The translations under genes and the position numbers were made by a program. A DNA stretch of 37,187 bases, from IMG/VR virus record IMGVR_UViG_3300014204_000132; one strand, written 5' to 3'. Shown piece after piece: positions 13,341 to 33,408 of the stretch (its first letter is position 1; each line of letters begins with the position of its first letter). The DNA is from a virus. Its lineage: Duplodnaviria; Heunggongvirae; Uroviricota; Caudoviricetes. A model generated the notes under the pieces. The model was not told where the DNA came from, made no database searches, and worked only from the letters and a program-made list of their open reading frames with translations.

Positions 13341-15446
13341 ATGGCTTTAACAACCGACCAAAAATCAAGTAGGCTCTTTAAAAAGTCGTTGGGTGCATCA
13401 GAAACATTAACAACGAGGGACTTTTTTGAAGAACCCAGATTAGGGAAATCATCAATATTACCAACTCAAATATGGGCAGAAGCGAGTCAAATACCAATAC
13501 CTGCCCCTACACTTACCAACGCACAGATAGACGGTGTTGTTCAATATTTTGAAAAACTCGCACTATCACATGTATCAGGTTCTGCTGGTAAAGCGTTTTA
13601 TCACGCATCATTAAAAGATAGTATAACCTTCAATTTTGATACAGGTGGTACATATAACTATTCTTTATATAAAAGTGATGGTACAACTGTTATTCCATTT
13701 GGGCAAGGTGATTGGTTAGTAGATAATGAAGCTGGCGTTCTAACGTTTTATGGTACATTACCATCGGCTGTTACAGACGTTTTACCTCCACAAATAACCT
13801 TTTATAAATATGTTGGTGCATTGGGTTTACCATCTGGCTCAACGGCAGGGTTAAATGTCCATGAAGCTGTTAAATTTGCTACAACAGGTCAAACTGATGC
13901 AACATATTCAACTGCAACGTCTGGATTTACAACTTTACCATCAGATGTAGATGGTGCAATATCATTTAACGAAGGTGATAGATTATTAATAAAAAATCAA
14001 GCCGTAGAATATGAAAACGGTGTTTATGTAGTAAGTGGTACTACACTTGTAAGGGCTGAAGATTCTAATGGACAACCATTTGGTGAAGTATCATTGAACG
14101 ATTATGTTTTTGTAACATCGGGTGAAACTAATGTTGCGACATCTTGGGTTATTAGTAATTCAAGTTCATTAAATTCACAAGGTTATATTACTGTTGGTGT
14201 TGATAGTCAGGTTTGGACAATTTTTGCTACAAGTAAAGCTTATACTGCTGATGGAAATGCACTTAAATTAAATGGTGATATTTTTTCTGTTGAATTAAAT
14301 GAAACTGAATTTAGTGGTACTACTTTTCATAATTATAATTCTGGTTTATATCAGAGTGTTGATGGTTTAAGACTTGCAACACCAGTGGTTACAGATATTT
14401 TTGCGTTGAGTGCTACAACTGAATCCTTAACAAGTAGTATTTCATCTTTAGAAACTGAAATTAGTACTGGTGTTTCTTCATTAACAACTGCTATAAGCAA
14501 TTCTATAACAGGTTTAACATCATTAGAAACAGAATTATCAAATTTCATTACAGGTAATACCTATGATGATACTTCTTTGTCTACTGCAATTTCAACTGAA
14601 TCATCAACAAGAGCTGGTGGTGATACATCGTTAGAAACAGTAATTAACAATCTAAGTGGTGTTACTGCTCAGACTGCTGGTTCTGGTTTAACTTATAATG
14701 ATAATGGTAATCAGGAATTAAACGTTAGTGTTGATGGTGTGACTATCGAAATTTCGACTAACACTTTACAAATTACAACTGGTTATACAACATCATTAGA
14801 AACATCAATTGGGAACGCTGTAACAGGATTAACATCTTTAGAAACTGTAATATCAACAAATAGTTCGACTATTACGGTATTAAGTAGTGAAACTACTTCG
14901 TTATCTACTGCATTATCAAATGTAATAACAGGTAATACTTATGATGATACTTCTTTATCTACTGCTATTTCAACTGAAATATCAAATAGATTATCTGGTG
15001 ATACATCATTAGAAACTGTAATTAACAATTTAAGTGGTGTTACTGCTCAGACTGCTGGTTCTGGTTTAACATATAATGATAATGGCAATCAGGAATTAAA
15101 CGTAAATGTTGATAACTATACATTAAAAATAGTTAATGATGAGTTGAGAGGTTCACAAATCTGGATTCAATCAACATATTCAGCAACAATAGTTACTGGT
15201 ACAACTGGCTCAACTGGTTTAGTTTTAACATACGAACCAATAACTCCAGTACAAGCAAGTATTAACGGTGTTGAATATTTAATAAGTATGTCAACTTCAA
15301 GCCAAACTAACATGCCATTTTATTTTAATGCTTTCCCTGCCGTCCAAGGTTCAACCTTATTTTATGATGCAACGGAAGGTGGGTTTGGAATAGAATCGGG
15401 TATTGATTTAATTGTAATTAAATACTCATATATCTCATTGGTTTAG
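13341..15446 (+). CDS. Putative virion fibre protein, module B2, with SLST-type coiled-coil segments
   Basis: N-domain shared with ORF 7891. GDRLLIKNQ...ENGVYVV...YVFV domain shared with ORF 17499. TSLSTAISTE repeats and the shared C-terminal domain. Confidence 0.65.
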   Translation: MALTTDQKSSRLFKKSLGASETLTTRDFFEEPRLGKSSILPTQIWAEASQIPIPAPTLTNAQIDGVVQYFEKLALSHVSGSAGKAFYHASLKDSITFNFDTGGTYNYSLYKSDGTTVIPFGQGDWLVDNEAGVLTFYGTLPSAVTDVLPPQITFYKYVGALGLPSGSTAGLNVHEAVKFATTGQTDATYSTATSGFTTLPSDVDGAISFNEGDRLLIKNQAVEYENGVYVVSGTTLVRAEDSNGQPFGEVSLNDYVFVTSGETNVATSWVISNSSSLNSQGYITVGVDSQVWTIFATSKAYTADGNALKLNGDIFSVELNETEFSGTTFHNYNSGLYQSVDGLRLATPVVTDIFALSATTESLTSSISSLETEISTGVSSLTTAISNSITGLTSLETELSNFITGNTYDDTSLSTAISTESSTRAGGDTSLETVINNLSGVTAQTAGSGLTYNDNGNQELNVSVDGVTIEISTNTLQITTGYTTSLETSIGNAVTGLTSLETVISTNSSTITVLSSETTSLSTALSNVITGNTYDDTSLSTAISTEISNRLSGDTSLETVINNLSGVTAQTAGSGLTYNDNGNQELNVNVDNYTLKIVNDELRGSQIWIQSTYSATIVTGTTGSTGLVLTYEPITPVQASINGVEYLISMSTSSQTNMPFYFNAFPAVQGSTLFYDATEGGFGIESGIDLIVIKYSYISLV
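14550..15113 (+). repeat. Internal ~186-bp duplication (14550-14735 and 14928-15113; offset 378 bp)
   Basis: GNTYDDTSLSTAISTE...DTSLETVINNLSGVTAQTAGSGLTYNDNGNQELNV occurs twice, with near-identical DNA. Confidence 0.9.
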
Positions 15447-15531: not shown

Positions 15532-15885
15532 TTAACCCTTACTCCCCAAATTATTATACATATCGTTAATATTCATTTCCAATATAATATTATCACATTC
15601 GTTAAATATTAATCTGACATCTTCATATACCATTTGTGTATCAAGTGATATTTCGATATCATCTAATAAAAATTTACGAATTATCGTTTTATTATCAGTG
15701 GTATCTGAAGGTATAAAATGTGTTTTAATACTTTCATGTGATAGATTTTCAAATCCAGATACCACCTTGTTATTAGTTACTATATTATTTATTTGTGGAT
15801 TTTGAATTTTTATAATTCGTATTTCTTGTATTAGAAAATCTAATGCTTCATTCTTATTCTGAATATCGAGAGTAATTGTGTCCAT
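15532..15885 (-). CDS. Hypothetical protein
   Basis: 117-aa ORF ending near the bidirectional terminator; no motif recognised. Confidence 0.6.
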   Translation of the reverse strand: MDTITLDIQNKNEALDFLIQEIRIIKIQNPQINNIVTNNKVVSGFENLSHESIKTHFIPSDTTDNKTIIRKFLLDDIEISLDTQMVYEDVRLIFNECDNIILEMNINDMYNNLGSKG

Positions 15886-15988: not shown

Positions 15989-17110
15989 ATGAATATCGGT
16001 ATTTCTTTCGGAGTCAATGATAATAAATTTAATATATGGTCAGATGGTGAAATTCAAAAAATTTTTTTTCTCTATTTTCTATTAAAAAAAATACCAGATG
16101 TAAATACATATATTGTAAATTTTGGTGTGCCAATTGATACTTTGGATACTGACATTCCAGATTTATTTAAAAATGTTGAGTTTGTAGACCCAGTAAATGA
16201 TATACATTTTGATTTGTTCATAGAAATGGGTAAAAAATTATCTAATGAGTATTTTACCGTATTAAAATTATGTAAAACAAAAATTGTATTATTTAAAATT
16301 GAAAATGCTTTTATTTCTGATTCGGAAGACATTCTTTTTGAGAATAAAAAAAGTATTATAGCATACGATGATTATGACGAAATATGGTCGTTCTCTAATA
16401 ATGAAAAATTAAATAAATATTATTTAGAAAATCTTTATAAAAAGGAAGTTAAATTCTTGCCTTATATATGGGATAATTTTTTCATTAAGAAATATGAAGA
16501 AAGTATGATTGATAATGATGTCAAACTACAATATAGTGATGTCAAATATAATAGGAAAAATAGAGGGGGTGTCGATATAACCATATTCGAAGAAAATAAT
16601 ACTATTTTAAAAAATTCACTTCATTCTATATTATTGGTTGAGAAGTTATACAATTTAAGACCCGAACTTATAGATAAGGTCAGAGTATTAAATTCTTATA
16701 AATTTTATAAAAATCCAAGATTTTTATCATTTGTTAACACATTAAAATTAAAACAGGATAATAAAATAACATTTGAAGAAAGATATACAACACCATTTAT
16801 TCTGAGTAATTATACAGATATAGTTGTATCTAATCAATTTGAAAATGATTTAAGTAATACATATTTTGATTGTTTATATACTAAATTCCCGTTAGTACAT
16901 AATTCTCCTAAAATAAACACTTTATATTATTATCCAGAATTTAATTTATCTGAGGGAAGTAATAAATTATTACAGGCCATAACAAAACATCAAAGTTTTG
17001 TCAATAAATACAATGACCAATGTGATAACATATTAAATATTTACTCTATTGATAATGAAAACATTATTGAAGAATATGAAAAGTGTATATTTAATATAAT
17101 TAAATCCTAA
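15989..17110 (+). CDS. DUF2827-like protein, divergent copy (putative GT-B fold)
   Basis: IWSDGEIQ, LPYIWD, IFEENN and DIVVSNQFENDL..TYFDCLY..FPLVHNS align with ORFs 19554 and 21199. Confidence 0.65.
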   Translation: MNIGISFGVNDNKFNIWSDGEIQKIFFLYFLLKKIPDVNTYIVNFGVPIDTLDTDIPDLFKNVEFVDPVNDIHFDLFIEMGKKLSNEYFTVLKLCKTKIVLFKIENAFISDSEDILFENKKSIIAYDDYDEIWSFSNNEKLNKYYLENLYKKEVKFLPYIWDNFFIKKYEESMIDNDVKLQYSDVKYNRKNRGGVDITIFEENNTILKNSLHSILLVEKLYNLRPELIDKVRVLNSYKFYKNPRFLSFVNTLKLKQDNKITFEERYTTPFILSNYTDIVVSNQFENDLSNTYFDCLYTKFPLVHNSPKINTLYYYPEFNLSEGSNKLLQAITKHQSFVNKYNDQCDNILNIYSIDNENIIEEYEKCIFNIIKS

Positions 17111-17114
17111 AAAC

Positions 17115-17381
17115 ATGAAAAAAATATCTGATAATACATATTTAATAGAAGGTAATCTTTATGCAAAAAGTGATGTTAGAATATATCCTTCTTTAGTAGA
17201 AAAAAATATACTCCATGTTAAGGGTGACGTGATAGCTTATGCTAATAAACCAAATAATATGAAACCTGAAGATGTGTGGGTTGATGATTTAGACGAAATT
17301 GATTTAAAATTTTATGATATTGTAGCTTTCAGTGATTTCATAATCCGACCACCCAAATTATCAGTTTTTACTCCTTTATAA
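17115..17381 (+). CDS. Small hypothetical protein
   Basis: 88-aa ORF 4 nt after the preceding stop; function unclear. Confidence 0.6.
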   Translation: MKKISDNTYLIEGNLYAKSDVRIYPSLVEKNILHVKGDVIAYANKPNNMKPEDVWVDDLDEIDLKFYDIVAFSDFIIRPPKLSVFTPL

Positions 17382-17442
17382 TCATATTTCTGAATATTAT
17401 TTTTTATACACATTTTATAAAAAAAAAATCTATTTTTTTATT

Positions 17443-17451
17443 TAATATATA
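17443..17451 (+). promoter_or_regulatory. TAATATATA motif (putative late promoter)
   Basis: Exact motif 47 nt before the ATG at 17499. Confidence 0.5.
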
Positions 17452-17498
17452 ATATCAAATTATGTAATAAATAATACAAAAAATAATATGATTTTAAT

Positions 17499-19439
17499 AT
17501 GGCTCAATTATTAAAAGGAAAACAAATCGCACAACAAACAGTTACTATAAAAGGTGCAACTGGTAATGTTGTAGTTCAAGGTGATTTGGATATGTCAACA
17601 TATAATGTGATAATATCTGGTTCACCAACGGCTGACAATCAAGCTGTTAACAAAGCTTACGTTGATGCAGTTGCAGGTGGATTAGTACCCCATTTACCAG
17701 TTCATGCTGTGGCTACTGGTACAACAGTATTAACTGGTACAACAACTATTGATGATTTTTTATTATCAGTAGATGATAGAGTACTTTTAACAAATCAAGG
17801 TGGTGCAGGTGCAACTGACCAAAACCCATCTAATGGTGTATGGCAGGTTAAGGCTGGTGCTTGGATAAGACCATTTGATTTTGATGGTACTCCAACTAAC
17901 GAAGTTTCTACTGGTGACTTTGTATTTGTTGAAAATGGAACAGTTAATGGAAAAACTGGTTGGGTTTTAGCTACTACTGATGCTGTACCAGAAACAGAAA
18001 TTGTAGTTAACGTTGATACACAAGGATGGGTAAAGATTTCTTCGCCTGGTACATATAGTACAGACGGTGAAGGATTAGACCTTACTGGTACTGTTTTCTC
18101 ACTTGAATTAGATGGTGGTACTCTAAGTAAAACTTCTTCTGGTGTAAGGGTTGCTTCATCTGTTATCACTCAAATATCAAATAATCAGGGTAATGTAACA
18201 TCATTGTCAACTGCGTTATCATCTGAAATATCATCAAATAATTCATCAGATACATCATTATCAACAGCTATTTCAACTGAAGCATCAACAAGAGGTACTG
18301 CTGACACATCATTATCAACAGCTATTTCTGGTAACGCATCTGCTACTACTTCATTAAGTACTGCTGTTTCAACCGAAACATCTACAAGAGGCAGTGCTGA
18401 TACATCATTAGCAACTGCTATTTCTGGTAATACATCTGCTGCTACTTCATTAAGTACTGCTGTTTCAACCGAAGCATCAACAAGAGGTACTGCTGACACT
18501 TCATTATCAACAGCTATTTCAACTGAAACATCAACAAGAGGTACTGCTGATACATCATTATCAACTGCTGTTTCAACTGAAACATCAACAAGAGGTAGTG
18601 CTGACACGTCATTATCAACTGCTATTTCAGCTAATAACTCATCAGATACATCGTTATCAACTGCCTTATCATCTGAAACATCTACAAGAGGGTCTGCTGA
18701 CACATCATTATCAACAGCTATTTCAACTGAAGCATCAACAAGAGGGTCTGCTGACACATCAATAACAACTGCTATTTCTGGTGAAGCTTCAATAAGAAGT
18801 TCAGCCGACACATCGTTAAGTACACAAATAGCTTCTTTGACATCTGGTTCAACTGCTGGCGTAGATTCATTATCAACCGCTTTATCAGGTGAAATTTCTT
18901 CAAGAGGCAGTGCTGACACTTCATTAGCAACTGGTATTTCAACTGCTGTTTCAACTGAAGCATCAACAAGAGGTACTGCTGACACATCATTATCAACAGC
19001 TATTTCAACTGAGGCATCAACAAGAGGCAGTGCTGACACTTCATTAGCAACTGGTATTTCAACTGCTGTTTCAACTGAAGCATCAACAAGAGGTACTGCT
19101 GACACATCTTTAGAAACTGCAATCAGTAATATTCAAGCTCCAAGTTATTTTGAACAGTTATTATCACCAGCAATTAGTGGTTCTACAACTGCTGTAAATA
19201 TTGGTACTGCTTTTGCACATGGTGTAACTGGGGGTGTAATTGATGAATCTACTGTTATAGTATTTTTAAACGGTATCGAATATACATTCGAATATGCACA
19301 AGGTTCACCTGCTGTATTCCATACAAACGGTGTTACTCCAACATCTGCTGGTACACCATTATATTTTGATGGTGTAGAAGCTGGATTCGCAATCGAAACA
19401 ACTGATGACGTTAAAATTAAATATGTAGTAACTACATAA
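17499..19439 (+). CDS. Ser/Thr-rich coiled-coil virion fibre protein (SLST repeats)
   Basis: Starts MAQLLKGKQI; AVNKAYVD motif; DRVLLTNQ..SNGVWQV..FVFVENG domain; 310-aa TSLSTAISTEASTRGTAD array; shared C-terminal domain. Confidence 0.75.
   Translation: MAQLLKGKQIAQQTVTIKGATGNVVVQGDLDMSTYNVIISGSPTADNQAVNKAYVDAVAGGLVPHLPVHAVATGTTVLTGTTTIDDFLLSVDDRVLLTNQGGAGATDQNPSNGVWQVKAGAWIRPFDFDGTPTNEVSTGDFVFVENGTVNGKTGWVLATTDAVPETEIVVNVDTQGWVKISSPGTYSTDGEGLDLTGTVFSLELDGGTLSKTSSGVRVASSVITQISNNQGNVTSLSTALSSEISSNNSSDTSLSTAISTEASTRGTADTSLSTAISGNASATTSLSTAVSTETSTRGSADTSLATAISGNTSAATSLSTAVSTEASTRGTADTSLSTAISTETSTRGTADTSLSTAVSTETSTRGSADTSLSTAISANNSSDTSLSTALSSETSTRGSADTSLSTAISTEASTRGSADTSITTAISGEASIRSSADTSLSTQIASLTSGSTAGVDSLSTALSGEISSRGSADTSLATGISTAVSTEASTRGTADTSLSTAISTEASTRGSADTSLATGISTAVSTEASTRGTADTSLETAISNIQAPSYFEQLLSPAISGSTTAVNIGTAFAHGVTGGVIDESTVIVFLNGIEYTFEYAQGSPAVFHTNGVTPTSAGTPLYFDGVEAGFAIETTDDVKIKYVVTT
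18198..19127 (+). repeat. Coding tandem array of 17 units of 14, 18 or 22 aa, including an exact 88-bp duplication (18901-18988 = 19021-19108)
   Basis: Manual parse: twelve 18-aa, three 14-aa and two 22-aa units plus an 8-aa tail, 310 aa in total. Confidence 0.95.
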
Positions 19440-19456
19440 TATTAAGTTAGGTCAAT

Positions 19457-19490
19457 AAAAAAAGAGTGTTCGAAAGGACACTCTTTTTTT
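19457..19490 (+). terminator. Intrinsic terminator with GAAA tetraloop
   Basis: A7-GAGTGTTC-gaaa-GGACACTC-T7. Confidence 0.9.
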
Positions 19491-19521
19491 GTTTAAATAT
19501 TAGAAGAAACCCAATTCATTT

Positions 19522-19530
19522 TGATATATA
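19522..19530 (+). promoter_or_regulatory. TGATATATA variant of the putative late promoter, ahead of the glycan cluster
   Basis: One mismatch to TAATATATA, 23 nt before the ATG at 19554. Confidence 0.4.
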
Positions 19531-19553
19531 TCTAAAAATATAGTTTTTTATTT

Positions 19554-21185
19554 ATGAATTCAAAATTAAATATTGGGATAACAATTTTTTTACATGAAGA
19601 AAATCAAAGTGTATGGACTAATGGTATATTACAGAATGCGATTTTTTTGGCAAAAACGTTTCAAAATTCTACTCAAAATTATAACGTATATCTTGTCAAC
19701 ACGAGTAATATTAATATTACAAATATATTGGGGTGGGATTTGATAGAATATAAAACAGTCCAATTTAATGATATAAAAGATAAATTAGATATTATATTTC
19801 CTTTAGGTGGTTCAATCGATAAACCAACAACAGAATATTTAAGAAATAGAGGATGTAAAGTAGTTCCATATAAATGTGGTAACGAATATGTGATTAGTAT
19901 GGAAAATATCATATTTAATCGCCAAGATATTGTAAAAGATTACCCAGAGGTAGACCAAATATGGAATATACCTCAAATGGAAAATACAAACCATCATTAC
20001 TGGAGAGTTTTACACAATGCTGAGACAATCACTATACCTTTTGTGTGGAATCCTTTATTTTTAAATAGCCATATAGATGAATTAAAAAAACAGGGAAAAA
20101 ATCCTTATTACATACCGAGTAAACTAAGTAAAAAAATTTCAATATTCGAACCCAATATAAATGTTTATAAATTTTTAATGTATCCGATGTTAATTATAGA
20201 AGATGCATATAGGGAACACCCAGAACTATTTCATAGTGTTAAAGTAACAAACACCCAAAAAGTTAGATTGACTAAAGAATTAACTTCTATTATGAATCAT
20301 TTGACAATAGTTCAAGATAAAAAGACCACATTTGAAAATAGATTCCCAATTACATGGTTTTTAACTGAACATACTGATGTAGTGGTATCTCATCAATGGG
20401 AAAATGCTTTAAATTATGCCTATCTGGATGCTATATATTTAGGTTATCCATTAGTACATAATGCTCATTTATGTAAAGATTGTGGATATTACTATGAAGG
20501 GTTTAATGTGACAGAAGGAAAAAAACAATTATTATATGCTTTAACCGAACACGATAATCATCTTGAAGAATATGATGAAAAAAATCAAAAAGTATTAGAT
20601 AGATATTCTACCGATAATATTGATGTTATAAAAAAATATGATGAACTAATATGTAATCTGGTTAATACTAAATCCATAGCATCGAATTTTGTTCCTACAA
20701 GTTTTGGTGCTTTTAAGTCAGAAATAAAGGATTATATATTAAGTAATTTTAACACTGGTGTTACCATATTAGATGTTGGTGCTGGTTGTGGGACGTATTC
20801 TAATATTCTTAGTGAATATGAAAATATCGATGCTGTTGAAATTTATGAACCATACATAAAAAAATATAAATTAAAAACAAAATATAGAAAAGTTTATACA
20901 ACAAATATAATAGATTTTAATTTCGATTATTATGATATAATCATAATGGGTGATATTTTAGAACATTTGACTATTGAAGATGCACAAAATCTCATAAACA
21001 AATTATATGATAAATGTAAACAACTAATAATTAGTGTACCATTTCTTATGAAACAATTCGGTCTCGAAAATAAAAACGAAGACCACATTCAAGATGATTT
21101 AACAGAAGAAATAATGGTTAGAAGGTATCCGAATTTACAAAAAAATTGGAGCAATAATACTATTGGTGTTTATTTTAAAAAATAA
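19554..21185 (+). CDS. DUF2827-like putative GT-B glycosyltransferase fused to a class I SAM methyltransferase
   Basis: VWTNGILQN, IFEPN and VVSHQWENALNYAYLDAIYLGYPLVHNA; C-terminal ~170 aa carry ILDVGAGCG, AVEIY and GDILEHL. Confidence 0.75.
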   Translation: MNSKLNIGITIFLHEENQSVWTNGILQNAIFLAKTFQNSTQNYNVYLVNTSNINITNILGWDLIEYKTVQFNDIKDKLDIIFPLGGSIDKPTTEYLRNRGCKVVPYKCGNEYVISMENIIFNRQDIVKDYPEVDQIWNIPQMENTNHHYWRVLHNAETITIPFVWNPLFLNSHIDELKKQGKNPYYIPSKLSKKISIFEPNINVYKFLMYPMLIIEDAYREHPELFHSVKVTNTQKVRLTKELTSIMNHLTIVQDKKTTFENRFPITWFLTEHTDVVVSHQWENALNYAYLDAIYLGYPLVHNAHLCKDCGYYYEGFNVTEGKKQLLYALTEHDNHLEEYDEKNQKVLDRYSTDNIDVIKKYDELICNLVNTKSIASNFVPTSFGAFKSEIKDYILSNFNTGVTILDVGAGCGTYSNILSEYENIDAVEIYEPYIKKYKLKTKYRKVYTTNIIDFNFDYYDIIIMGDILEHLTIEDAQNLINKLYDKCKQLIISVPFLMKQFGLENKNEDHIQDDLTEEIMVRRYPNLQKNWSNNTIGVYFKK

Positions 21186-21198
21186 AAATATTATTTGA

Positions 21199-22323
21199 AT
21201 GGCAACTGCAACAATGAAGAATATTGCTATCACATTAGGTGTTAGAAGTAATAATGAAGGTTTATGGATAAATGGCATCAAACTAAATGGTTTATATTTA
21301 GCTAAACTTCTTAAAAACATTGGGAAATATAACGTATTTTTCGCTAATACAACAAGTAAAGAATTTACTCAATTCGCATTTGATACAAAAGAATTTCCAG
21401 TACATCATATTTCGGATGTAAAAGATGATATTGATATATTAATATCTCTCGGTGGACAGATTGACCAATCTATGACTACATACTTAAAGAAAAGAAAAAC
21501 AAAAATAGTTTCGTACAAATGTGGTAATGAATATGTTATTAGAATGGAAAATGTTTTATTTAATCAAGATGTTGGAAGTTCTATAATATGGTGTAATCCA
21601 GATTACGATGAAATATGGTGTGTACCACAGGTTTTTGAACAAAATAAATATTATTTCAATAGATTTCATAAAAATAAAAATGTAAAATCTGTTCCGTTTA
21701 TATGGGATTCTTTTTTAATTGATGAATTAGCATCATCATTAAAAAATAACCCTCGTTACACACCAAAAAACACACCTAAATCCATAGCAATACTTGAACC
21801 TAATCAAGATGTTTTGAAGTATGCTATGTATCCGATTTTGATTGTTGATGATGTATATGAACAAAGACCAGAATTAATAGAGAAATTATTTGTTACTAAT
21901 ACATTTAATATTCGAAAACATAAAGTTTTTGTGGAATACATGAATCATTTAAGTATTGTTAAAGACCATAAGGCAACATTCGAGGATAGATTTTCAACCG
22001 TTGAATTTTTAGCCGATTATGCTGATATAGTCGTCAGTCACCAATGGGATAATCCTTTGAATTATTTTTATTTGGATGTGGCTTACCTTGGACACGCTAT
22101 ATTACATAACGCCCACATGTGTAAAAATGTTGGATATTATTATGAGGGGTTTAATGGTAAAAATGCTACTGATAAATTAATATGGATTTTGGAAAATCAC
22201 GACAAGAATCTGGAAGAATATAATGAAAGAAATAAAAAAACAATTTTCTCTTATGATGCTGATAATGAAATAAATATAAGCATATATAATAATTTGTTAA
22301 AAACACTAATAAAAAAATATTAG
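21199..22323 (+). CDS. DUF2827-like putative GT-B glycosyltransferase
   Basis: LWINGIKLN, SYKCGNEYVI, ILEPN and VVSHQWDNPLNYFYLDVAYLGHAILHNA. Confidence 0.75.
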   Translation: MATATMKNIAITLGVRSNNEGLWINGIKLNGLYLAKLLKNIGKYNVFFANTTSKEFTQFAFDTKEFPVHHISDVKDDIDILISLGGQIDQSMTTYLKKRKTKIVSYKCGNEYVIRMENVLFNQDVGSSIIWCNPDYDEIWCVPQVFEQNKYYFNRFHKNKNVKSVPFIWDSFLIDELASSLKNNPRYTPKNTPKSIAILEPNQDVLKYAMYPILIVDDVYEQRPELIEKLFVTNTFNIRKHKVFVEYMNHLSIVKDHKATFEDRFSTVEFLADYADIVVSHQWDNPLNYFYLDVAYLGHAILHNAHMCKNVGYYYEGFNGKNATDKLIWILENHDKNLEEYNERNKKTIFSYDADNEINISIYNNLLKTLIKKY

Positions 22324-22325: not shown

Positions 22326-23138
22326 ATGAAAAATATTGATGGTATATCAATAGTTATGGCATATCATAACAGGAGAGAGCAATTAATTAGAACTTTAAAT
22401 TCTATTAACGAAACTAAATATGATAGGTCGAAATTAGAAATTGTTATCATTAATGATAATAGTTTAGAACAACATTCAATAGACGATTTACCATCTTTAT
22501 TTAATAAACTGAAGTTTCGTATTTTTAATATTAAAAAAGAACAGAAGAAATGGACTTGTTCATGTGTCCCATATAATATAGGATTTAATCATGTGCAATA
22601 TAATAAAATTCTTTTCCAGAATCCAGAATGTTATCACATGGGTGATGTATTATCCGATGTTGATATAAATTTAACTGATGAAAATTATATACCATATGCA
22701 TGTTATTCTATTGGAGAAAAAGAATATAATGTTAATAATTATAACAAATTAGTGTATAATAATTGTCAGCCACCACATGCATGTTCTAATGGTTGGTATA
22801 ATCATTCTGTAATAAATCCAAAAGGGTATCACTTTGCTGCTGCAATAACTACCAATAATTTATATAAAATTGGTGGATTTGATGAAGAATATAAAGATGG
22901 GGTTGCGTTCGATGATAATGAAATATTAAGAAGAATCAGATTATTGGATTTAAATATAATAATTATAAATTCACCATATGTTATTCACCAGTGGCACGAT
23001 AGTGTTTATCATTTTAATGCATTAACACCCGAAGATGAAAAAAAACACACTTTAGAGTTATTTTATAAAAATCAAGCTATTTTTGACAGAGGTGTGTCAG
23101 ATTATAAAGTCTATAATAATTTTTACTTTAAAACATGA
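22326..23138 (+). CDS. GT-A glycosyltransferase (GT2-type N-terminus, GT7-like C-terminal motif)
   Basis: SIVMAYHNR, IVIINDNS, QNPEC and GGFDEEY..G.AFDDNE. Confidence 0.85.
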   Translation: MKNIDGISIVMAYHNRREQLIRTLNSINETKYDRSKLEIVIINDNSLEQHSIDDLPSLFNKLKFRIFNIKKEQKKWTCSCVPYNIGFNHVQYNKILFQNPECYHMGDVLSDVDINLTDENYIPYACYSIGEKEYNVNNYNKLVYNNCQPPHACSNGWYNHSVINPKGYHFAAAITTNNLYKIGGFDEEYKDGVAFDDNEILRRIRLLDLNIIIINSPYVIHQWHDSVYHFNALTPEDEKKHTLELFYKNQAIFDRGVSDYKVYNNFYFKT

Positions 23139-24456: not shown

Positions 24457-24896
24457 CAGAAGAAAAATTTGTACAATTATTTAAAAATAATGGTTTTACG
24501 GTAAATAAGACTGATTATAAAGATGATAAATATAATCATTTCGATTATACTGTCGAAAAAGATGGTGATATTAAAAAAATTGAGGTAAAAGCTGCCAAGA
24601 AAGATGATAGAAATGATGCTAAACCTTCATTTGAAATAACATGGATTGAATTAAAAGGTATTAAAGGTTATTCTGGGTGGTTATATGGCAAAGCAGATTA
24701 TTTTGCCTTTGAACAAAAAGATGGTTTTATTTTATCAACACGAAAAGATATAGTTGAGTTAATTTTAAGAAAATTAGTTGATAATAACTTCGAACGTGGT
24801 AAGAGTGTATATCAAATTTATAATAGAGAAGGTCGTGAAGACATATTGGTTAAAATATTATTTGACGACTTAGAAAATAAAATATATGTTAAATAA
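24423..24896 (+). CDS. PD-(D/E)XK nuclease-fold protein, copy 2
   Basis: GELAEEKF, NHFDY...KIEVKA and TWIEL..GWLYGKADYFAFE. Confidence 0.6.
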   Translation: MFEAEKRAGELAEEKFVQLFKNNGFTVNKTDYKDDKYNHFDYTVEKDGDIKKIEVKAAKKDDRNDAKPSFEITWIELKGIKGYSGWLYGKADYFAFEQKDGFILSTRKDIVELILRKLVDNNFERGKSVYQIYNREGREDILVKILFDDLENKIYVK

Positions 24897-26554
24897 TGGA
24901 TAAAAAATTAACTAAAATATCTAATGAAGTAGGATTTTCTTATATAATATCATATAGAGAAAATGATGGATATAGAAAAAAAGACTTAGAAGCAGTTATT
25001 GATTATGTTTTAAATTTTGGTTTTGAAAAATTTGAAATAATATTAATAGAACAAGATATAGAGGAACGTGTTAAAATTAAAAAAAATAAAAATATAAAGA
25101 AATTATTTCTTTATAATGATGGAGTTTTCAATAAAGGACTTGGTTATAATATCGGAGCTTTAAATGCTAAATATGAAGTTTTGGTTTTTTGTGATGCTGA
25201 CATCATCTTACCAAAAGATTTCTTTTTAAACGCATTAAACGTTAAAGATTTTGATGTAATTGACCCATATAAAAAGATTTATTATTATGATGAAATGGAA
25301 ACCGACAGAATGATAGAAGAAGGTTTCGAACGGTTGAGTGATAATATTGAAAAAGAAGTTCAATCATATGTTGTAACTGGTGGTGTATTTTTAATGAAAC
25401 GTGACAAATTTATTGAAATTAAAGGCTATGATGAGGAATGTTTTGGGTATGGACATGAAGATGATATTTTAGATAGTAAAATAAAAATACTGGGATATAA
25501 CACAATAAGAATGGATAACCAATATTGCATTCATTTATATCACCCACTATCATCTCCAGATTATTATGACCACGTTAAAACAAATAGAATGATGGCTAAC
25601 AACTATCGACAATTTACAAAAGAAAAGTTAATAGATAAAATAAATTCTACAAATACATTTGGTGAAGGAATTATAAAAGACACAACTGAAAATAATTATA
25701 GAGTTGAAATAAATAATGTAGTTAAAAATGTTGAAGAAAATGTTGAAGAAAATATAAATTATAAAGATGATATATTAGTAAAAGAAGAAAATTTTTTAAC
25801 TAAATCAAAAAAGATTTTCAATAATTTTTTCAATATAAATTCTAAAAAACCATTATCAATTATTATAACAGCATACCAAACACAAGATTATATTGAAGAA
25901 TGTTTGGATTCTATTGAAAACCAAACATATTTTAATGACCATAATAATTATGAAATTTTAGTTGGGTTTGATGATTGTCATGCAACTTTGAAAAAATTAA
26001 TAGATATTAGGCCATATTATAGAAATTTGAGAATATTTATGATGAATAGTAATATGGGTACATATATTACTTCAAATACTTTAATACGTATGGCAAAATT
26101 TGATAATATTATTCGATTTGATAGTGATGATGTTATGATGCCGAATATGATAAAAGAGATTGTCGAAAAATCTAATGATTGTGATTTGTTAAGATTCTCA
26201 TGTTACAATTTCACAACGAATATTAATGAAAAGATTAGTAATGTTGATAAATTGAAATATCCAGATGGTGTGGTTTTTTATAGAAAAAAAGTATTTAATA
26301 TAGCTGGTGGATATAAAGGTTGGAAGTGTGCAGCCGATACAGAACTCTTAAAAAGAATACAGAATTTTGTTAGAATAAAAGAAACTGGAACTTATTTATT
26401 TTATAGAAGAATTCATAATAATAGTCTAACAAAAAGAAAAGAAACCAATTTTAATAGTGAATTAAGAAACAATTATAAATCTCAAATTAGAGTTTATAAT
26501 ACAAATGAAAATATAAAAATTGATATAGAAACAAACTCATATATCGAATTTTAA
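24896..26554 (+). CDS. Two-domain GT-A glycosyltransferase (GT2 + GT2)
   Basis: Domain 1: YNIGA, VFCDADII, GYDE..GYGHEDD. Domain 2: SIIITAY, ILVGFDD, RFDSDDVM. Confidence 0.85.
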   Translation: MDKKLTKISNEVGFSYIISYRENDGYRKKDLEAVIDYVLNFGFEKFEIILIEQDIEERVKIKKNKNIKKLFLYNDGVFNKGLGYNIGALNAKYEVLVFCDADIILPKDFFLNALNVKDFDVIDPYKKIYYYDEMETDRMIEEGFERLSDNIEKEVQSYVVTGGVFLMKRDKFIEIKGYDEECFGYGHEDDILDSKIKILGYNTIRMDNQYCIHLYHPLSSPDYYDHVKTNRMMANNYRQFTKEKLIDKINSTNTFGEGIIKDTTENNYRVEINNVVKNVEENVEENINYKDDILVKEENFLTKSKKIFNNFFNINSKKPLSIIITAYQTQDYIEECLDSIENQTYFNDHNNYEILVGFDDCHATLKKLIDIRPYYRNLRIFMMNSNMGTYITSNTLIRMAKFDNIIRFDSDDVMMPNMIKEIVEKSNDCDLLRFSCYNFTTNINEKISNVDKLKYPDGVVFYRKKVFNIAGGYKGWKCAADTELLKRIQNFVRIKETGTYLFYRRIHNNSLTKRKETNFNSELRNNYKSQIRVYNTNENIKIDIETNSYIEF

Positions 26555-26570: not shown

Positions 26571-27224
26571 ATGAATTTTACACATTTAATAGTAAGCAGA
26601 ATAAATATCCGATGGACTGAACATTCTAAAGATGAAAAATGGTTAAATAACCGTAAAACCATTCTTAATAATACATTAAGAGCATCAATTCAGGCTCAAA
26701 CAAATAAGAATTTTAAATTTGTAACTCTCTGGGGTTATGAACCCGAAGGTATGATTGAAAATGAATATACTATAAAGACTGAAGAAGTTGGATTAGAAAA
26801 TATTTTCAATGATATTGTACCTGAATTATATAAATTAATCGATGAAGATTATGTTTTAGTTACAAGAATAGATAGTGATAATTGTTTAAGTGATGATTTT
26901 GTTGATATACTTCAAAAAAATATTATAGAAGAAGCACCATATTATTATGATATTAAAAAAATGAATATATTTAATTTACTGACTAATGAAAAAAGAATTT
27001 GGAATGTTTCTAAAACCAGTGGATTTATTTCTGTTATGGAGAAAAAAGAGGATTTCATTTGTATACCATATAAATATAATCACTCAAAACTTGGTGAAGT
27101 TTATAGTGGTGTGGTTATTGACGATTTAAAAGTGTTGCTGAACGTCCACGAGGATAATGTAAAAGTTAAAATGATTGGTATACCAGCTAATTATGATATT
27201 GATAAATTTAATTTAAAACTATAA
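26571..27224 (+). CDS. Putative rhamnosyltransferase-family glycosyltransferase
   Basis: WL..R......TL.ASI.AQTNKNF and TRIDSD pattern. Confidence 0.65.
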   Translation: MNFTHLIVSRINIRWTEHSKDEKWLNNRKTILNNTLRASIQAQTNKNFKFVTLWGYEPEGMIENEYTIKTEEVGLENIFNDIVPELYKLIDEDYVLVTRIDSDNCLSDDFVDILQKNIIEEAPYYYDIKKMNIFNLLTNEKRIWNVSKTSGFISVMEKKEDFICIPYKYNHSKLGEVYSGVVIDDLKVLLNVHEDNVKVKMIGIPANYDIDKFNLKL

Positions 27225-27324
27225 AAAATTTTATTCGATTATTAAACAAAAATTATCATATTAACTATATATTTTATCACAGAACTCGGTTGTGTGAATA
27301 AATAATAAAAATTTAAGTTCAATA

Positions 27325-28122
27325 ATGAAAATATCATTAGTTACTGCTTATTATAATAGGAAACAATTATTCTTCAACACATTAAAATCTATTGAAAAAT
27401 CATCATTGAAGAAGGATTTAGAACTTATAGTAGTTGATGATGCATCAACAGATGACCAAAGGATTGAAGATTTTATCGATAAATTTGATTTAGATATAAA
27501 ATTATTAAGGATAGAAAAAAAAGATAAATGGTGGACAAATCCAAGTCTTCCATTTAATAAAGGATTTAAATTGGTTACTGGTGAAGTTGTTATCATACAG
27601 AATCCAGAATGTGTCCACATGGGTGACCTATTAAAAAATATTACTGAAAATATTAAAGATAATGTTTATTTAAATTTCGGGTGTTATTCTGTTGATGAAA
27701 AACTAACTTCTAAAATTAGTTATGTTTCTAAAAATGAATTTAATATACTTAAAATAAAATATTATATTGAACCTATGATTAATAGAGGTATAAATAGAGA
27801 CGGAGAAACAGCGTGGTATAATCATTCAAAGTATAGACCTCATCAGTTGCATTTTTGTTCAGCTATAACTAAAAAAGATTTATTTGATTTGGGTGGATTT
27901 GATGAACGATTTGCAAATGGAATAGCTTTCGATGATAATGAATTTTTGGTTCGAATAAAAAGAAAAAAAATGAATATAAAAATGGTTGATGAACCATTCG
28001 TCATTCATCAATATCATGGTAATACTAATTATAGTTCTAAGATAAATTTATTCAATAAAAATCGAGATATTTTTATCAACTATACATTGAAAGAAAATAA
28101 AATTAAAATACAGGATTTATAA
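27325..28122 (+). CDS. GT-A glycosyltransferase (paralog of 22326)
   Basis: AYYNR, IVVDDAS, QNPECVHMGD and GGFDERF..GIAFDDNE. Confidence 0.85.
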   Translation: MKISLVTAYYNRKQLFFNTLKSIEKSSLKKDLELIVVDDASTDDQRIEDFIDKFDLDIKLLRIEKKDKWWTNPSLPFNKGFKLVTGEVVIIQNPECVHMGDLLKNITENIKDNVYLNFGCYSVDEKLTSKISYVSKNEFNILKIKYYIEPMINRGINRDGETAWYNHSKYRPHQLHFCSAITKKDLFDLGGFDERFANGIAFDDNEFLVRIKRKKMNIKMVDEPFVIHQYHGNTNYSSKINLFNKNRDIFINYTLKENKIKIQDL

Positions 28123-28973
28123 TGATACCTAAAAGAATTTTTTTTTATTGGTCGGGTTCTGATTTATCTTGGATGAGATATATGACACTGTTTTCATTTA
28201 GACAATTTAACCCAGATTGGGACATAACTCTTTATATTTCCGACAATAAGAATAAGAATAAGTGGTACGGTAGAGAAGAACAAGATTTCTCTAATTATAA
28301 AGGGGTAAACTATTTATCACAGGTTGAAGAATTAAACATAAAAGTTCAAAAAATAAATTTACCAGATGATGTTAAAAACAAGGTTAAGGATTTATCACCT
28401 GTACATGAGAGTGATATATTCAGATATTATGAATTATTTTCTAATGGTGGAATATATGCCGATATGGACATTTTATTCTTTAGGCCAATTGATAAATTTT
28501 ATAAACAATTAATAGAAAATAATACTGATACACTAATTCATCAAGACACAGGGTTTATTACTATCGGATTCTTGGGTGCGGAAAGTGGTAATTCTTTTTA
28601 TAAGGATATATTAGACCATGCTTTAGACATAGAAAAGTATGATAACTATCAATCATTTGGTGTTGATTTAATTTATAGTATATACGGAACTAATCGTCAG
28701 AACCCATACATCATAGATAAAATACTACAAAAACATCCAGAATTAAATATTTTCAATTTAAAAAATGAAACTGTCTACAATTTCGACTGGACGATGATAG
28801 AATATAATAATCAATATGGGGTTGATATCAATAAATTTTCAAAAGAATCTATCGGGTATCATTGGTTTGGTGGGCATCCAATGTCACAGATGTTTAATAA
28901 TACTCTGAATGAAAAAAATTATGTGGATTATAATACAACGTTTTGTAAGTTGTGTAAAAATATTTTAAAATAA
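28122..28973 (+). CDS. DXD-motif glycosyltransferase (GT32/Gb3 synthase/OCH1-like)
   Basis: [10 protein letters not shown] and SDIFRY..L...GGIYADMD. Confidence 0.85.
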
Positions 28974-28974
28974 A

Positions 28975-29718
28975 ATGAAAAATAAATTTATTGTAATAGT
29001 ACCTGTTTATAATGCTGAACCATTCATTGAAAAATGTTTAAAATCTATACTAAATCAAACTTACAAAAATTTTGAATTGGTTGTAATAGATGATTGTTCA
29101 ACTGATAAAACCTATGAAGTAATTAATAAAGTTCATGCTGAATTTGGTAATTCTTTTAATGTATGTCAGAATCATATCAGAGTCGGTTCACCTCTGGCAA
29201 CTTTTATAAAAGGTATTGAATTCTTTTCTTTTAATAAAGAAGATATTTTAGTTACTGTCGATGGGGACGATTTTTTGTATGATAATTCAGTTTTCGAATA
29301 TCTGAATAACTCTTACCAAAATGAAAATATTTATATGACATATGGAAATTTTATTCCTTTCAGTGGAACATACGGTAAATTTTGTAAACCGATACCAGAT
29401 ACACAAACATATAGAAGAAGTGGTGCTTGGTATGCATCCCATCTTCGAACAGTTAAAAAGAAATTATTCGATTTAATAAACAAAGATGATTTAAGGGATT
29501 TTAATGGAGAATATTATAAGATGGCTGGTGATGCTGCATATATGTATCCTATAATTGAAATGGCTGGTAAGAATCATCTTTTATTTATTGATAAAGTGTT
29601 GTATGTGTATAATGACATGAATATTTTAAATGAGATGCATGTAAATACTAATTTACAATTAGAAATTGCAGCAGAAATAAGAAGTAAGACTCCGTACACT
29701 GAAATAAATAAAATATAA
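28975..29718 (+). CDS. GT2 glycosyltransferase
   Basis: [30 protein letters not shown] and VDGDD. Confidence 0.9.
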
Positions 29719-30527
29719 TGAATATTATAGTTTTTAGTAAAGATAGAGCAATGCAATTGGAGTTATTCATTAGAAGCTTCAATATATATGTTAAAAATCC
29801 AGATAAATATTGGATAAAAATTTTATACACATATTCTGATGATAAATTTAAAAACGGTTACGAAAAATTAATAAGTGAATCAAACGGAGATATATTGTGG
29901 AAAAAAGAAGAAAATTTCAAATCAGATTTAATAAATTTAATAAATCAATATGATGCATTCACTGTATTTTTTGTTGATGATATAATATTTAAAAACACGA
30001 TAGATTTTGATGATAAACAAAAAGAAATATTTGAACAAGATAATGAAATATTATGTAGAAGTTTAAGATTACAACCAGATTTAACACATTCATATGCATC
30101 TAAAACAAATATGGTTAATCCAATGTTCTTAGATAATAATATTTATTTGTGGAAAGGTGAAAGTGGAGATTATGGTTATCCAATGTCCGTAGATGGACAT
30201 ATTTTCAGAACGAATCAGATATTTCCCTATGTATTAAATTTACCTTATACAAACCCTAATTCATTTGAAGGTAATATGGCTATTAGACCAATAAATTTAC
30301 CAAAAATGATTTGTTATGATAAATCGATAATTATAAATAACCCTTGTAATAAAGTTCAAACAAATAATCCAAACTATCATGGTATTATTGATGTGAGAGA
30401 ACTTAATAAAAAGTTTTTAGACGGATTTATTATTAGTTTAGAAAATATTGATGGTTTAAAAAATAATGCATGTCATCAGGAAATAGATTTGATTTTTAAA
30501 AATAAAAATAAAAAAAATGTTACTTAA
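29718..30527 (+). CDS. GT-A-like glycosyltransferase
   Basis: IIVFSKDRAMQL N-terminus and FFVDDIIF (DD motif); cluster context. Confidence 0.55.
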   Translation: MNIIVFSKDRAMQLELFIRSFNIYVKNPDKYWIKILYTYSDDKFKNGYEKLISESNGDILWKKEENFKSDLINLINQYDAFTVFFVDDIIFKNTIDFDDKQKEIFEQDNEILCRSLRLQPDLTHSYASKTNMVNPMFLDNNIYLWKGESGDYGYPMSVDGHIFRTNQIFPYVLNLPYTNPNSFEGNMAIRPINLPKMICYDKSIIINNPCNKVQTNNPNYHGIIDVRELNKKFLDGFIISLENIDGLKNNACHQEIDLIFKNKNKKNVT

Positions 30528-31137
30528 TCTTGAAAATTTAATAAAAAAATATAATCTGAATTTAAAAGGTGTTCTTCATATTGGCGCACACTTTGGTAGG
30601 GAAATGGATGCTTATAAAAAAGCTAATATTAAAAATGTTATGTTTTTTGAGCCTTTACCTCATACATTTGAAAAATTAAAACAATATGTTGGTGAAAATA
30701 ATGCAATATTTGTCAATAAAGCACTTGGTAATAAAATTGGAAAAGCTGATATGTATGTTGAATATGATAATGAAAGCCAATCATCATCTTTATTAGAACC
30801 CATGTTACATGTAACACAATACCCAAATATTAAATTTAATGATAAAATTGAAGTTGAAATTGATAAACTGGATAATATACCATACAATCGAAATGATTTT
30901 AATTTTATTAATATTGATGTTCAAGGATATGAATTAGAAGTTTTTAAAGGTGCTATAAAATCATTGAATACAATAGATATTATAATGACTGAAATAAATA
31001 GAGCTAACTTATATAAAGATTGTGTATTAGAAGATGAATTGGATGAATTTCTATTAAAACATTACAACTTCAAAAGAGTTGAAACATTTTGGGCTGGTGG
31101 TACTTGGGGTGATGCACTTTATATTAAAAATAAATAA
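30517..31137 (+). CDS. FkbM-family methyltransferase
   Basis: LHIGAHFG.E, FFEP, NKALG and INIDVQGYELEV..GA. Confidence 0.9.
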   Translation: MLLNLENLIKKYNLNLKGVLHIGAHFGREMDAYKKANIKNVMFFEPLPHTFEKLKQYVGENNAIFVNKALGNKIGKADMYVEYDNESQSSSLLEPMLHVTQYPNIKFNDKIEVEIDKLDNIPYNRNDFNFINIDVQGYELEVFKGAIKSLNTIDIIMTEINRANLYKDCVLEDELDEFLLKHYNFKRVETFWAGGTWGDALYIKNK

Positions 31138-31143
31138 AAGATT

Positions 31144-31866
31144 ATGATATCATTAGCAATACCAACATATAATAGACATTTATTAACATTAGAATCTTTT
31201 AACCAAGTGTTAGATAACGATTTTATTGAAGAAATTGTAATTATAGATGATAATTCTATTCAAACTTATTATGATACTCTTAAAAATGAAATTGATAAAT
31301 TAAACAATACGAAAATTAAAATATTTCGAAACGAAAGAAATTTTAAGCCATTATTAAATAAAACAATAACAGTAGAACATTGTAAAAATGATTGGGTCAT
31401 TTTATTGGATTCAGATAACATTATTGATGATTCTTATATTAATATTATTAAAAGAATAGATGCGAAAGATGATATATTATATTGTCCAGAAATCTTATAT
31501 CAAAACACAGCTAAAAATACAATTTCTCTTAATTATAAAAACTTCACTGGATTAGATATAAATAAAAATACCTTGAAGAATTTTATACATATAGAATTAT
31601 TCGATGCACTTTTAAATACTGGAAATTATTTTGTCAATAGAAATAATTATTTAAAAATTTTAAAAAATAAAGAAATCGATAATGAACTGAGCATTAATGA
31701 TGCTTTATATTTTTCATATCTGTGGTTAATGGAGGGATTTAAAATTGAGGTAGTACCCGATTTATCATATATTCATCGTGTCCACAATAATAGTTGGTAT
31801 ATAACTCACACTAATGAATGTCAATTATCAACAACAAAAATATTTGAAAAAATAAGAAATATGTAA
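31144..31866 (+). CDS. GT2 glycosyltransferase
   Basis: ISLAIPTYNR, IVIIDDNS, RNERN and LLDSDN. Confidence 0.85.
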   Translation: MISLAIPTYNRHLLTLESFNQVLDNDFIEEIVIIDDNSIQTYYDTLKNEIDKLNNTKIKIFRNERNFKPLLNKTITVEHCKNDWVILLDSDNIIDDSYINIIKRIDAKDDILYCPEILYQNTAKNTISLNYKNFTGLDINKNTLKNFIHIELFDALLNTGNYFVNRNNYLKILKNKEIDNELSINDALYFSYLWLMEGFKIEVVPDLSYIHRVHNNSWYITHTNECQLSTTKIFEKIRNM

Positions 31867-32723: not shown

Positions 32724-33403
32724 GTAATAATGATATTAATGATATTTATAACAACTATGTTAAAATAAATTACACAATAGAATATACTAATAAATACGTT
32801 CCTCTACCACTTCAATATAATAATAAACAATGGAAATGGGAAGGGAAAGATTTTCCCCGAATCATAGCTTTGCTCGAATTTAGAGAATATATGTTAGAAT
32901 ATAATAAAACTTTTAATGATGTTTTATCATTCAACGGAGATAGCGACCCAGAATATGAATATATGAAATATAATAATCTTCATAATTTTAATTATGAAGA
33001 AAATGAAAAATATGATTTACATAAAATTGATTTAGACAAAAAAGATTTTGATTTTGCAATGACGAATCAAACAATTGAACATTTATATAATCCTATTTTA
33101 GCCATAAAAAATATTTATAATCATTTGAAAATTGGTGGAATTTTTTATACAAATGTTCCAGCAGACAATGTGCCACATTCAACACCATTTCATTTTTATA
33201 CTGGTATTACACCTGTTGGTTTAGGCGCAATGGTTAAATTGGCTGGATTTGATATACTTAAAATTGGACAATGGGGTAATAAGGAGTATTTTAGACAAAT
33301 GCACGATAAATTATGGTCAGATTATACTTATTCTACTCGTGCTGGATATAATGACGTGAAATGCCCTATTATAACTTGGTGTTTAGCTATAAAAAATAAA
33401 TAA
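32717..33403 (+). CDS. Class I SAM-dependent methyltransferase
   Basis: FDFAMTNQTIEHLYNP..AIKNIYNHLKIGG; motif I is degenerate (VLSFNG). Confidence 0.7.
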   Translation: MLSNNDINDIYNNYVKINYTIEYTNKYVPLPLQYNNKQWKWEGKDFPRIIALLEFREYMLEYNKTFNDVLSFNGDSDPEYEYMKYNNLHNFNYEENEKYDLHKIDLDKKDFDFAMTNQTIEHLYNPILAIKNIYNHLKIGGIFYTNVPADNVPHSTPFHFYTGITPVGLGAMVKLAGFDILKIGQWGNKEYFRQMHDKLWSDYTYSTRAGYNDVKCPIITWCLAIKNK

Positions 33404-33408
33404 TTTGA

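Follow-up and report, generated by a model that had tools for sequence, protein, structure and literature searches.

The stretch of DNA analysed here (the window, 37,187 nucleotides) comes from the IMG/VR virus record IMGVR_UViG_3300014204_000132, and corresponds to the minus strand of positions 294,298-331,484 of that 675,678-bp sequence, which has about 26% G+C. Within it, three genes for proteins of the DUF2827 family (PF10933) are arranged around a gene for a serine- and threonine-rich fibre protein built on SLST-type repeats. The original prediction for this locus held that DUF2827 proteins are initiating protein O-glycosyltransferases for SLST coiled coils, used here on a virion fibre. 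Cytoplasmic O-glycosylation of phage SLST fibres, with DUF2827 proteins as the first transferases and a downstream gene island extending the glycan, is also the best reading of the results below, and one that we consider on balance probable. The gene arrangement itself was recovered as open reading frames (ORFs) with end-to-end PF10933 matches, although its context is larger than had been stated, with a second fibre paralogue upstream and a glycosyltransferase block that runs to the end of the window and past it. The central features are as follows.

13341..15446, plus strand: second SLST-repeat fibre paralogue, 701 amino acids, 28% Ser+Thr, four SLST units (residues 379, 411, 519 and 537).
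15989..17110, plus strand: DUF2827 copy 1 (P0001), divergent, 373 amino acids, PF10933 E 1.4e-74 over residues 3-366.
17499..19439, plus strand: SLST-repeat fibre (P0002), 646 amino acids, with a tail-fibre-like N-terminal domain, a predicted coiled-coil rod and a C-terminal knob.
18198..19127, plus strand: repeat array of this fibre, the candidate acceptor surface, with 17 units of 14, 18 or 22 residues (fibre residues 234-543).
19554..21185, plus strand: DUF2827 copy 2 (P0003), fused to a C-terminal S-adenosylmethionine (SAM)-methyltransferase domain, 543 amino acids, PF10933 E 7e-118 over residues 7-366.
21199..22323, plus strand: DUF2827 copy 3 (P0004), the copy that was modelled, 374 amino acids, PF10933 E 1e-105.

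The three copies match the DUF2827 profile over its full length (positions 1-361 or 1-362 in each case), with bit scores of 251.6, 394.0 and 353.9 against a gathering score of 25 bits. The family is broader than its Pfam description suggests, with 1,037 matching clusters at 50% identity (E <=1e-3). No other Pfam family, and so no Glycos_transf_1 match, was found in the glycosyltransferase (GT) region of the copies at E <=0.01. An AlphaFold2 model of copy 3, built from an 81-sequence alignment (mean pLDDT 95.6, pTM 0.93), nevertheless has the GT-B fold that had been forecast for it, with two predicted Rossmann domains, a cleft between them and a likeness to solved GT-B enzymes. Among the matches listed by Foldseek for this model, almost all of the highest ranking are retaining GT4 enzymes; BshA matches at E 6e-12, and SdgB is among the close ones. 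SdgB O-GlcNAcylates the Ser-Asp repeats of surface adhesins in Staphylococcus, so that a protein O-glycosyltransferase of repeat adhesins is found among the close structural relatives of the model. TibC, of the bacterial autotransporter heptosyltransferases (TibC/Aah, BAHT), was not among the 50 matches listed by Foldseek or VIA.

W140, N202 and H303 are invariant over the 81 sequences and are kept by all three window copies, and a near-invariant block, E200-P-N202...K207, lies just past the first strand of the C-terminal Rossmann domain of the model, with R264, D276, N285-x7-D/E293 and H303-N304 further along the chain. The DAIYLGYPLVHN...GYYY stretch, which had been likened to a GT-B motif, is indeed present in the ORF at 19554; it forms the last conserved block, a putative counterpart of the GT4 segment made up of E-x7-E and the G-x-P-V helix after it. 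All three copies retain E200, N202, K207, R264, D276, N285, D293, H303, N304, Y313 and Y315, with position 293 being Asp in the window copies and Glu in bacterial classes A and C (see below). Even the divergent copy 1 departs from the near-invariant residues only at P201E, H281N, W283F and N288S. A comparison with GtfA/GtfB, in which one partner would be catalytically dead, thus fails because all three copies keep these residues, and copy 1 as a dead GtfB-like subunit is unsupported.

Elsewhere, DUF2827 is found fused to GT2, GT9-like, GT32, PLOD-GT, GT25 and methyltransferase domains, architectures that fit an enzyme of multi-step glycan assembly. The methyltransferase domain of copy 2 (residues 393-496) is weak, scoring 19-24 bits with methyltransferase families, under the Pfam cut-offs; the same fusion recurs in an unrelated representative (P0029) with stronger methyltransferase scores. 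We consider it very likely that DUF2827 proteins are glycosyltransferases. We give little credence to the alternative that they are catalytically inactive proteins with a GT-B fold that chaperone or help to assemble Ser/Thr-rich coiled-coil fibres, resembling GtfB without GtfA. It would accommodate the great divergence of copy 1, the Asn at the first position of the E-x7-E equivalent and the fact that DUF2827 activity has never, to our knowledge, been demonstrated, but it sits poorly with invariant polar and charged residues at the expected cleft positions in more than 200 sequences of all paralogue classes, and fusion to active-looking glycosyltransferase and methyltransferase domains fits an enzyme better.

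What these enzymes might act upon is suggested by bacterial genomes. A scan with one genome per species gave 120 DUF2827 relatives, from which 80 bacterial loci were kept, mostly from Burkholderiales with some from Acidithiobacillus and Azonexaceae. Tandem copies are the rule, with three in 55 loci, four in eight, two in five and one in 17 (a tally that includes five viral loci). At 56 of the 80 loci, an ORF that combines at least five [ST][ST][LIVM][STA]T motifs with a Ser+Thr content of 22-55% is found no more than 3 kb, and usually no more than 700 bp, from the DUF2827 genes. Every giant SLST-rich neighbour sampled (six of six) is a trimeric autotransporter, with extended signal peptide region (ESPR), YadA head, stalk or anchor domains, and the autotransporter repeats are of the type (T/S)G(I/V/F)SSLSTG..., with periods of 7, 11, 14 and 18 residues. 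That SLST repeats occur in Burkholderia trimeric autotransporters, as originally stated, accords with their documentation in the adhesins BoaA and BoaB (PMC2955633). The DUF2827-autotransporter linkage is thereby independently reproduced, and sharpened, relative to a preprint of January 2026 (bioRxiv 10.64898/2026.01.22.700529).

These loci also bear on the order in which sugars would be added. Among 82 other neighbour genes from 27 autotransporter loci, no other glycosyltransferase family recurs, GT34 being present in only two of the 82. It is mainly because the bacterial loci hold no other recurring transferase that initiation of the glycan on SLST Ser/Thr residues by DUF2827 is plausible, and that the label 'initiating' remains a reasonable one. 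The competing possibility is that DUF2827 proteins extend glycans whose first sugar is supplied by a GT-A enzyme of the island or by a host enzyme. Frequent fusion to other glycosyltransferase domains, the presence of three to four paralogues per locus, the non-SLST neighbours in other viruses and, in one viral locus, a gene of the GT60-like polypeptide N-acetylglucosamine (GlcNAc)-transferase family (PF11397) beside two DUF2827 genes would all suit such a role. We regard it as unlikely, given the absence of a second recurrent family from the 27 bacterial loci and the occurrence of class-A DUF2827 proteins alone beside giant Ser/Thr-rich proteins, where they must start the chain if the locus glycosylates those adhesins.

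Many of the autotransporter loci carry, between the DUF2827 paralogues, a conserved protein of about 190 amino acids with a signal-peptide-like N-terminus, no Pfam family and 50-75% identity between genera (for example L012:9379-9978, L015:9317-9895, L017:8220-8828, L042:8903-9463). The phage window contains no counterpart of this secreted protein.

The partner in the phage is of a different kind. The fibre P0002 contains 34% Ser+Thr, and its repeat units are anchored on TS[LI]xT at spacings of 14, 18 or 22 residues; in the main unit, TSLSTAISTEASTRGSAD, nine of the 18 residues are Ser or Thr, exactly as first reported. Residues 29-239 match phrog_2647 (E 2e-18), the N-terminal 230 or so residues resemble phage tail-fibre and head-decoration proteins by PHROG and sequence matches, and the structural neighbours in the Atlas are tail fibres (TM 0.64-0.67). 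At E <=0.01 the protein matches neither YadA nor any other Pfam family, and the features of an autotransporter (ESPR or signal peptide, YadA head or stalk, beta-barrel anchor) are lacking. The paralogue at 13341-15446 is 36% identical to P0002 over 357 amino acids (BLASTP, E 2e-38), and matches PHROG head-decoration and virion proteins; its gene contains a 54-bp tandem repeat at window positions 14894-15011. The only feature common to the phage fibre and the bacterial adhesins is the SLST-type rod, with its 14/18-residue periodicity.

Three copies of fibre residues 384-646 were modelled together, giving an ipSAE of 0.65 against 0.00 for the best control, on a scale whose pass mark, in a calibration on dimers, was attained by 21 of 30 solved homomers and none of 23 monomers; the partner pLDDT did not fall below 87, and the contacts agreed to 93%. 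The model supports, rather than shows, trimerisation of the fibre. In it, residues 386-548 form a parallel, in-register coiled coil with contacts every three to four residues, so that, together with the phage-type N-terminal domain, the protein has the predicted traits of a trimeric coiled-coil phage fibre. In the modelled core, Leu, Ile and Val are joined by Glu and Arg, and most of the hydroxyl-bearing side chains face outwards: of the 74 Ser/Thr residues in 386-548, 60 take no part in any inter-chain contact, and Ser or Thr occupies 60 of the 68 positions free of contacts. The exterior of the rod would thus be essentially a sheet of hydroxyl groups. The Glu and Arg of a recurring E-x-x-x-R pair are counted among the core contacts, so that the interior of the coiled coil may contain polar or ionic layers.

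Only five ORFs with at least three SLST-type motifs are encoded in the entire 675,678-bp genome, none of them more than about 41 kb from the DUF2827 genes, which argues against a chance association of fibres and transferases. Together they flank a single island of roughly 25 genes, comprising about 20 genes for soluble glycosyltransferases and methyltransferases together with genes for uridine diphosphate (UDP)-sugar synthesis. Between 22326 and the end of the window, glycosyltransferase or methyltransferase domains are encoded by no fewer than 13 additional genes, the former including several GT2, rhamnosyltransferase-like, GT32, GT47 and galactosyltransferase-like types and the latter two FkbM, one SAM-methyltransferase and one sugar C-methyltransferase. 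The assigned features of this block are listed here.

22326..23138, plus strand: GT2-like glycosyltransferase (PF00535 E 2e-7).
24896..26554, plus strand: two-domain GT2 / GT7C-like glycosyltransferase (PF00535 E 1e-20 in two stretches; PF02709 E 5e-10).
26571..29718, plus strand: four glycosyltransferase genes, namely rhamnosyltransferase-like (PF11316 E 6e-9), GT2 (PF00535 E 4e-11), GT32 with DXD (PF04488 E 3e-8) and GT2 (PF00535 E 3e-21).
30517..36718, plus strand: eight ORFs, in order FkbM methyltransferase, GT2, GT47 exostosin-like, SAM-methyltransferase, galactosyltransferase-like, an unassigned ORF, second FkbM methyltransferase and sugar C-methyltransferase (PF05050 E 2e-18 and 6e-20; PF00535 E 2e-15; PF03016 E 7e-13; PF13489 E 3e-8; PF01762 E 6e-8; the sugar C-methyltransferase with PF08484, PF13489 and PF08421, E 2e-32).

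Past the window end (L091, genome 274298-294297), the minus-strand ORFs 18914-19999, 14665-15687 and 13805-14638 encode a UDP-GlcNAc 2-epimerase, a Polysacc_synt_2 4,6-dehydratase and an RmlD-like reductase. This set resembles pathways to UDP-2-acetamido-2,6-dideoxy-L-hexoses, so that the phage probably makes a rare sugar donor of its own. The UDP-sugar genes are followed by three more structural-looking SLST-repeat proteins, at genome positions 281850-286544 (1564 amino acids), 277206-279512 (768 amino acids) and 274157-276007 (616 amino acids), which have the unit DTSLSTAISTExSTRGSA in common and differ in architecture.

A set of GT2, GT32, GT47, rhamnosyltransferase-like, FkbM and UDP-sugar genes is typical of polysaccharide loci, and phage fibre genes cluster regardless of what surrounds them. 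The island could therefore make a free or cell-associated polysaccharide, or remodel the host envelope (for example in superinfection exclusion or receptor masking), with its proximity to the fibres reflecting the structural module and the fibres not serving as acceptor. We judge this improbable. A hydrophobic 19-residue stretch above 1.6, as would mark a membrane segment, is absent from all 23 island proteins in the window, and their Pfam matches include no flippase, polymerase, exporter or priming phosphoglycosyltransferase, a negative that covers these proteins and not lipid-carrier enzymes encoded in the rest of the genome. Moreover, bacterial DUF2827 genes track an autotransporter protein and not polysaccharide loci. 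It is more remote still that the transferases glycosylate phage DNA, as a base hypermodification against restriction. The genes lie inside the fibre block, the bacterial linkage with autotransporters has no DNA logic, the only gene of the thymidylate synthase family, some 100 kb distant, has the score of an ordinary ThyA (E 4e-94), and T4 AGT ranks below many non-DNA GT4 enzymes among the structural matches listed.

The genome that holds the island is that of a tailed phage, a megaphage, despite a 'provirus' label on the record. This assignment follows from the presence of a phage large terminase (Terminase_6N), the absence of a match to the capsid protein of nucleocytoplasmic large DNA viruses (NCLDV), which is a weak negative since the same search matched no control genome either, and the direct terminal repeats of a complete 640-kb kin genome. 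A giant-virus origin, prompted by one related contig labelled GVMAG, was rejected on the terminase and the lack of an NCLDV capsid match.

Phylogenetic analysis indicates that the bacterial trio represents three old paralogue classes. Class A, the one also found alone beside giant Ser/Thr-rich proteins, is sister (support 99/98) to a viral clade (96/86) that contains copies 2 and 3 and all other viral copies except window copy 1; this copy is an unplaced, very long branch. The tree rejects the phage copies as orthologues of the bacterial trio and, since the viral clade is sister to a single bacterial class, points to duplication within the phage lineage.

Relatives of DUF2827 are encoded on 231 stretches in IMG/VR. 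The gene order SLST fibre, DUF2827-methyltransferase, DUF2827, glycosyltransferase block recurs in two kin megaphages (L004 and L005), although these are too closely related to the window to count as independent cases. Of 64 non-redundant viral loci, 18 have within 1 kb a gene for a protein of 200 or more amino acids with at least 25% Ser+Thr, against 7.8 expected (P ~1e-4). The DUF2827/Ser-Thr-repeat co-occurrence that had been anticipated is therefore borne out in bacteria and in this genome and is weaker in other viruses, where the general theme is one of adjoining fibrous or repeat surface proteins, not strictly SLST rods. In L155:3628-12625 and L161/L162:11907-21079, a lone DUF2827 gene is followed by one for a 907-amino-acid collagen-triple-helix protein and two for proteins of about 1,000 amino acids with 53-60% Ser+Thr, and there are DUF2827 proteins elsewhere with a fused PLOD-type collagen glycosyltransferase domain. 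A GT32-DUF2827 fusion occurs on giant-virus-like contigs with RING-finger and DUF5899 genes, L093 (Logan) and L006 (GVMAG). Occurrence on contigs with such genes suggests that the family spans bacteria, phages and, probably, NCLDV.

Collectively, these results are best accommodated by the glycosylation of the phage's own SLST fibres. The three DUF2827 proteins would be soluble GT-B glycosyltransferases of the retaining GT4 structural type that act in the host cytoplasm during infection, transferring sugar from a nucleotide sugar to Ser/Thr hydroxyls on the outer face of the trimeric coiled-coil SLST rods that five fibre proteins carry, two of these proteins being encoded in the window. The downstream GT-A transferases, with the O- and C-methyltransferases, would extend and decorate these glycans using UDP-sugars made by the phage, and the product would be a set of glycan-coated virion fibres. 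That the fibres are the glycan acceptor is likely on our analysis.

Several observations weigh against this proposal. Neither P0004 alone nor the 81-sequence profile gave a meaningful sequence match to a solved structure, and DUF2827 has N-x7-D/E at the putative counterpart of the canonical GT4 motif E-x7-E. The fibre is placed in the virion solely by homology. About 15 of the 80 bacterial loci, with adequate flanks, have no Ser/Thr-rich partner within 10 kb, and in the 64 viral loci the immediate neighbours are not significantly enriched in Ser/Thr-rich proteins (10 against 7.4 expected, P 0.16), only the 1-3 kb range being so. The other viral neighbours are leucine-rich-repeat (LRR), collagen-like, DUF285 and Laminin_G (Laminin_G_3) proteins and not SLST rods, so that, with the modest enrichment, SLST specificity is not general across viruses, which weakens this part of the original prediction. 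Finally, the clustering of SLST ORFs around DUF2827 within this genome is not independent evidence, because phage fibre genes group together anyway.

A bolder version of the fibre-glycosylation proposal is that the SLST coiled-coil unit of 18 residues serves as a transferable scaffold for glycosylation, read by DUF2827 enzymes in adhesins and phage fibres alike, and that this phage dresses five fibres with methylated heteroglycans built in the cytoplasm by about 25 enzymes of its own, as a phage counterpart of the fibrils of giant eukaryotic viruses. This we offer tentatively, as an idea that may well prove wrong.

Adhesin glycosylation by dedicated enzymes is known from SdgA/SdgB of Staphylococcus and from GtfA/GtfB of the streptococcal serine-rich repeat (SRR) adhesins. 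The DUF2827 proteins have no detectable sequence relationship to either pair; their acceptor would be a coiled coil, either folded or still folding, and not Ser-Asp (SD) or SRR dipeptide repeats, there is no accessory Sec system, and the product would be part of a virion. The two-subunit organisation of GtfA/GtfB, with one catalytic and one dead GT-B protein, is likewise not seen, since all three phage copies and all three bacterial classes keep the polar cleft residues and the kin megaphage has just two copies, without the divergent one.

Fibrils of the Mimivirus type are glycosylated by virus-encoded cytoplasmic machinery. The suggested likeness lies in a very large virus with its own nucleotide-sugar genes and many soluble glycosyltransferases beside fibre genes, and in the presence of DUF2827 on giant-virus-like contigs; unlike Mimivirus, this is a tailed phage with a terminase and no NCLDV capsid match. 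Among phages, the glycosyltransferases of mycobacteriophages modify their own structural proteins (Freeman et al. 2023, Cell Host Microbe, cited in PMC12619734), a parallel with what is proposed here. As described in PMC12619734, the mycobacteriophage acceptors are C-terminal extensions of capsid and tail-tube subunits served by one or two transferases, whereas the candidates here are the repeat rods of five fibre proteins, another enzyme family and an island of some 25 genes.

The nearest precedent is the January 2026 preprint, which reports that DUF2827 genes, in two or three copies, adjoin trimeric autotransporter adhesins in Burkholderia, Veillonellales and Pasteurellales, and proposes, without a test, that they encode cytoplasmic glycosyltransferases (bioRxiv 10.64898/2026.01.22.700529). 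The phage locus resembles those loci in its Pfam family and in the tandem of two to three copies beside a fibrous surface protein, and departs from them in that its partner protein is a phage fibre lacking ESPR, YadA head, stalk and anchor, the phage copies form a separate clade sister to one bacterial class, and about 20 further glycan genes follow. Both the DUF2827-adhesin link with the glycosyltransferase proposal and, from mycobacteriophages, the glycosylation of phage virions are thus already known. In the preprint, the SLST rod is not picked out as the common element, and what is new is the phage-side evidence that this rod is the only element common to two unrelated partner architectures, together with the five-fibre island, the surface-exposure model and the paralogue phylogeny.

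If the proposal is correct, it would give a function to a family of more than 1,000 clusters (50% identity) found in Burkholderiales adhesin loci, megaphages and giant-virus-like contigs, and would define a new class of protein O-glycosyltransferase with a short acceptor module amenable to peptide tests (e.g., DTSLSTAISTEASTRGSA). Virion glycosylation would then extend from mycobacteriophage capsids to megaphage fibres, with a bearing on host recognition, fibre protection and glyco-engineering. Its value is lowered by the prior description of the enzyme-adhesin link and by its foundation in sequence, models and gene neighbourhoods.

Within the DUF2827 cluster itself, the conserved core is the methyltransferase fusion, kept in both kin megaphages, and the DUF2827 copy that follows it, as the complete 640-kb relative has only those two. 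Copy 1 has no counterpart in that genome, and it is flanked in the window by two small ORFs.

15532..15885, minus strand: orphan ORF of 117 amino acids beside the divergent copy 1.
17115..17381, plus strand: orphan ORF of 88 amino acids between copy 1 and the fibre, with no Pfam or PHROG match.

No homologue of either ORF was found in any fetched locus. Copy 1 and both orphan ORFs are absent from the kin megaphages, which suggests that they were inserted recently among the fibre genes. Upstream of the island, the fibre genes are interspersed with sequences encoding an ART-PolyVal ADP-ribosyltransferase domain, a SprT-like metalloprotease domain and four DUF4116 repeats (window positions 9132-9650, 4406-5149 and 542-1135).

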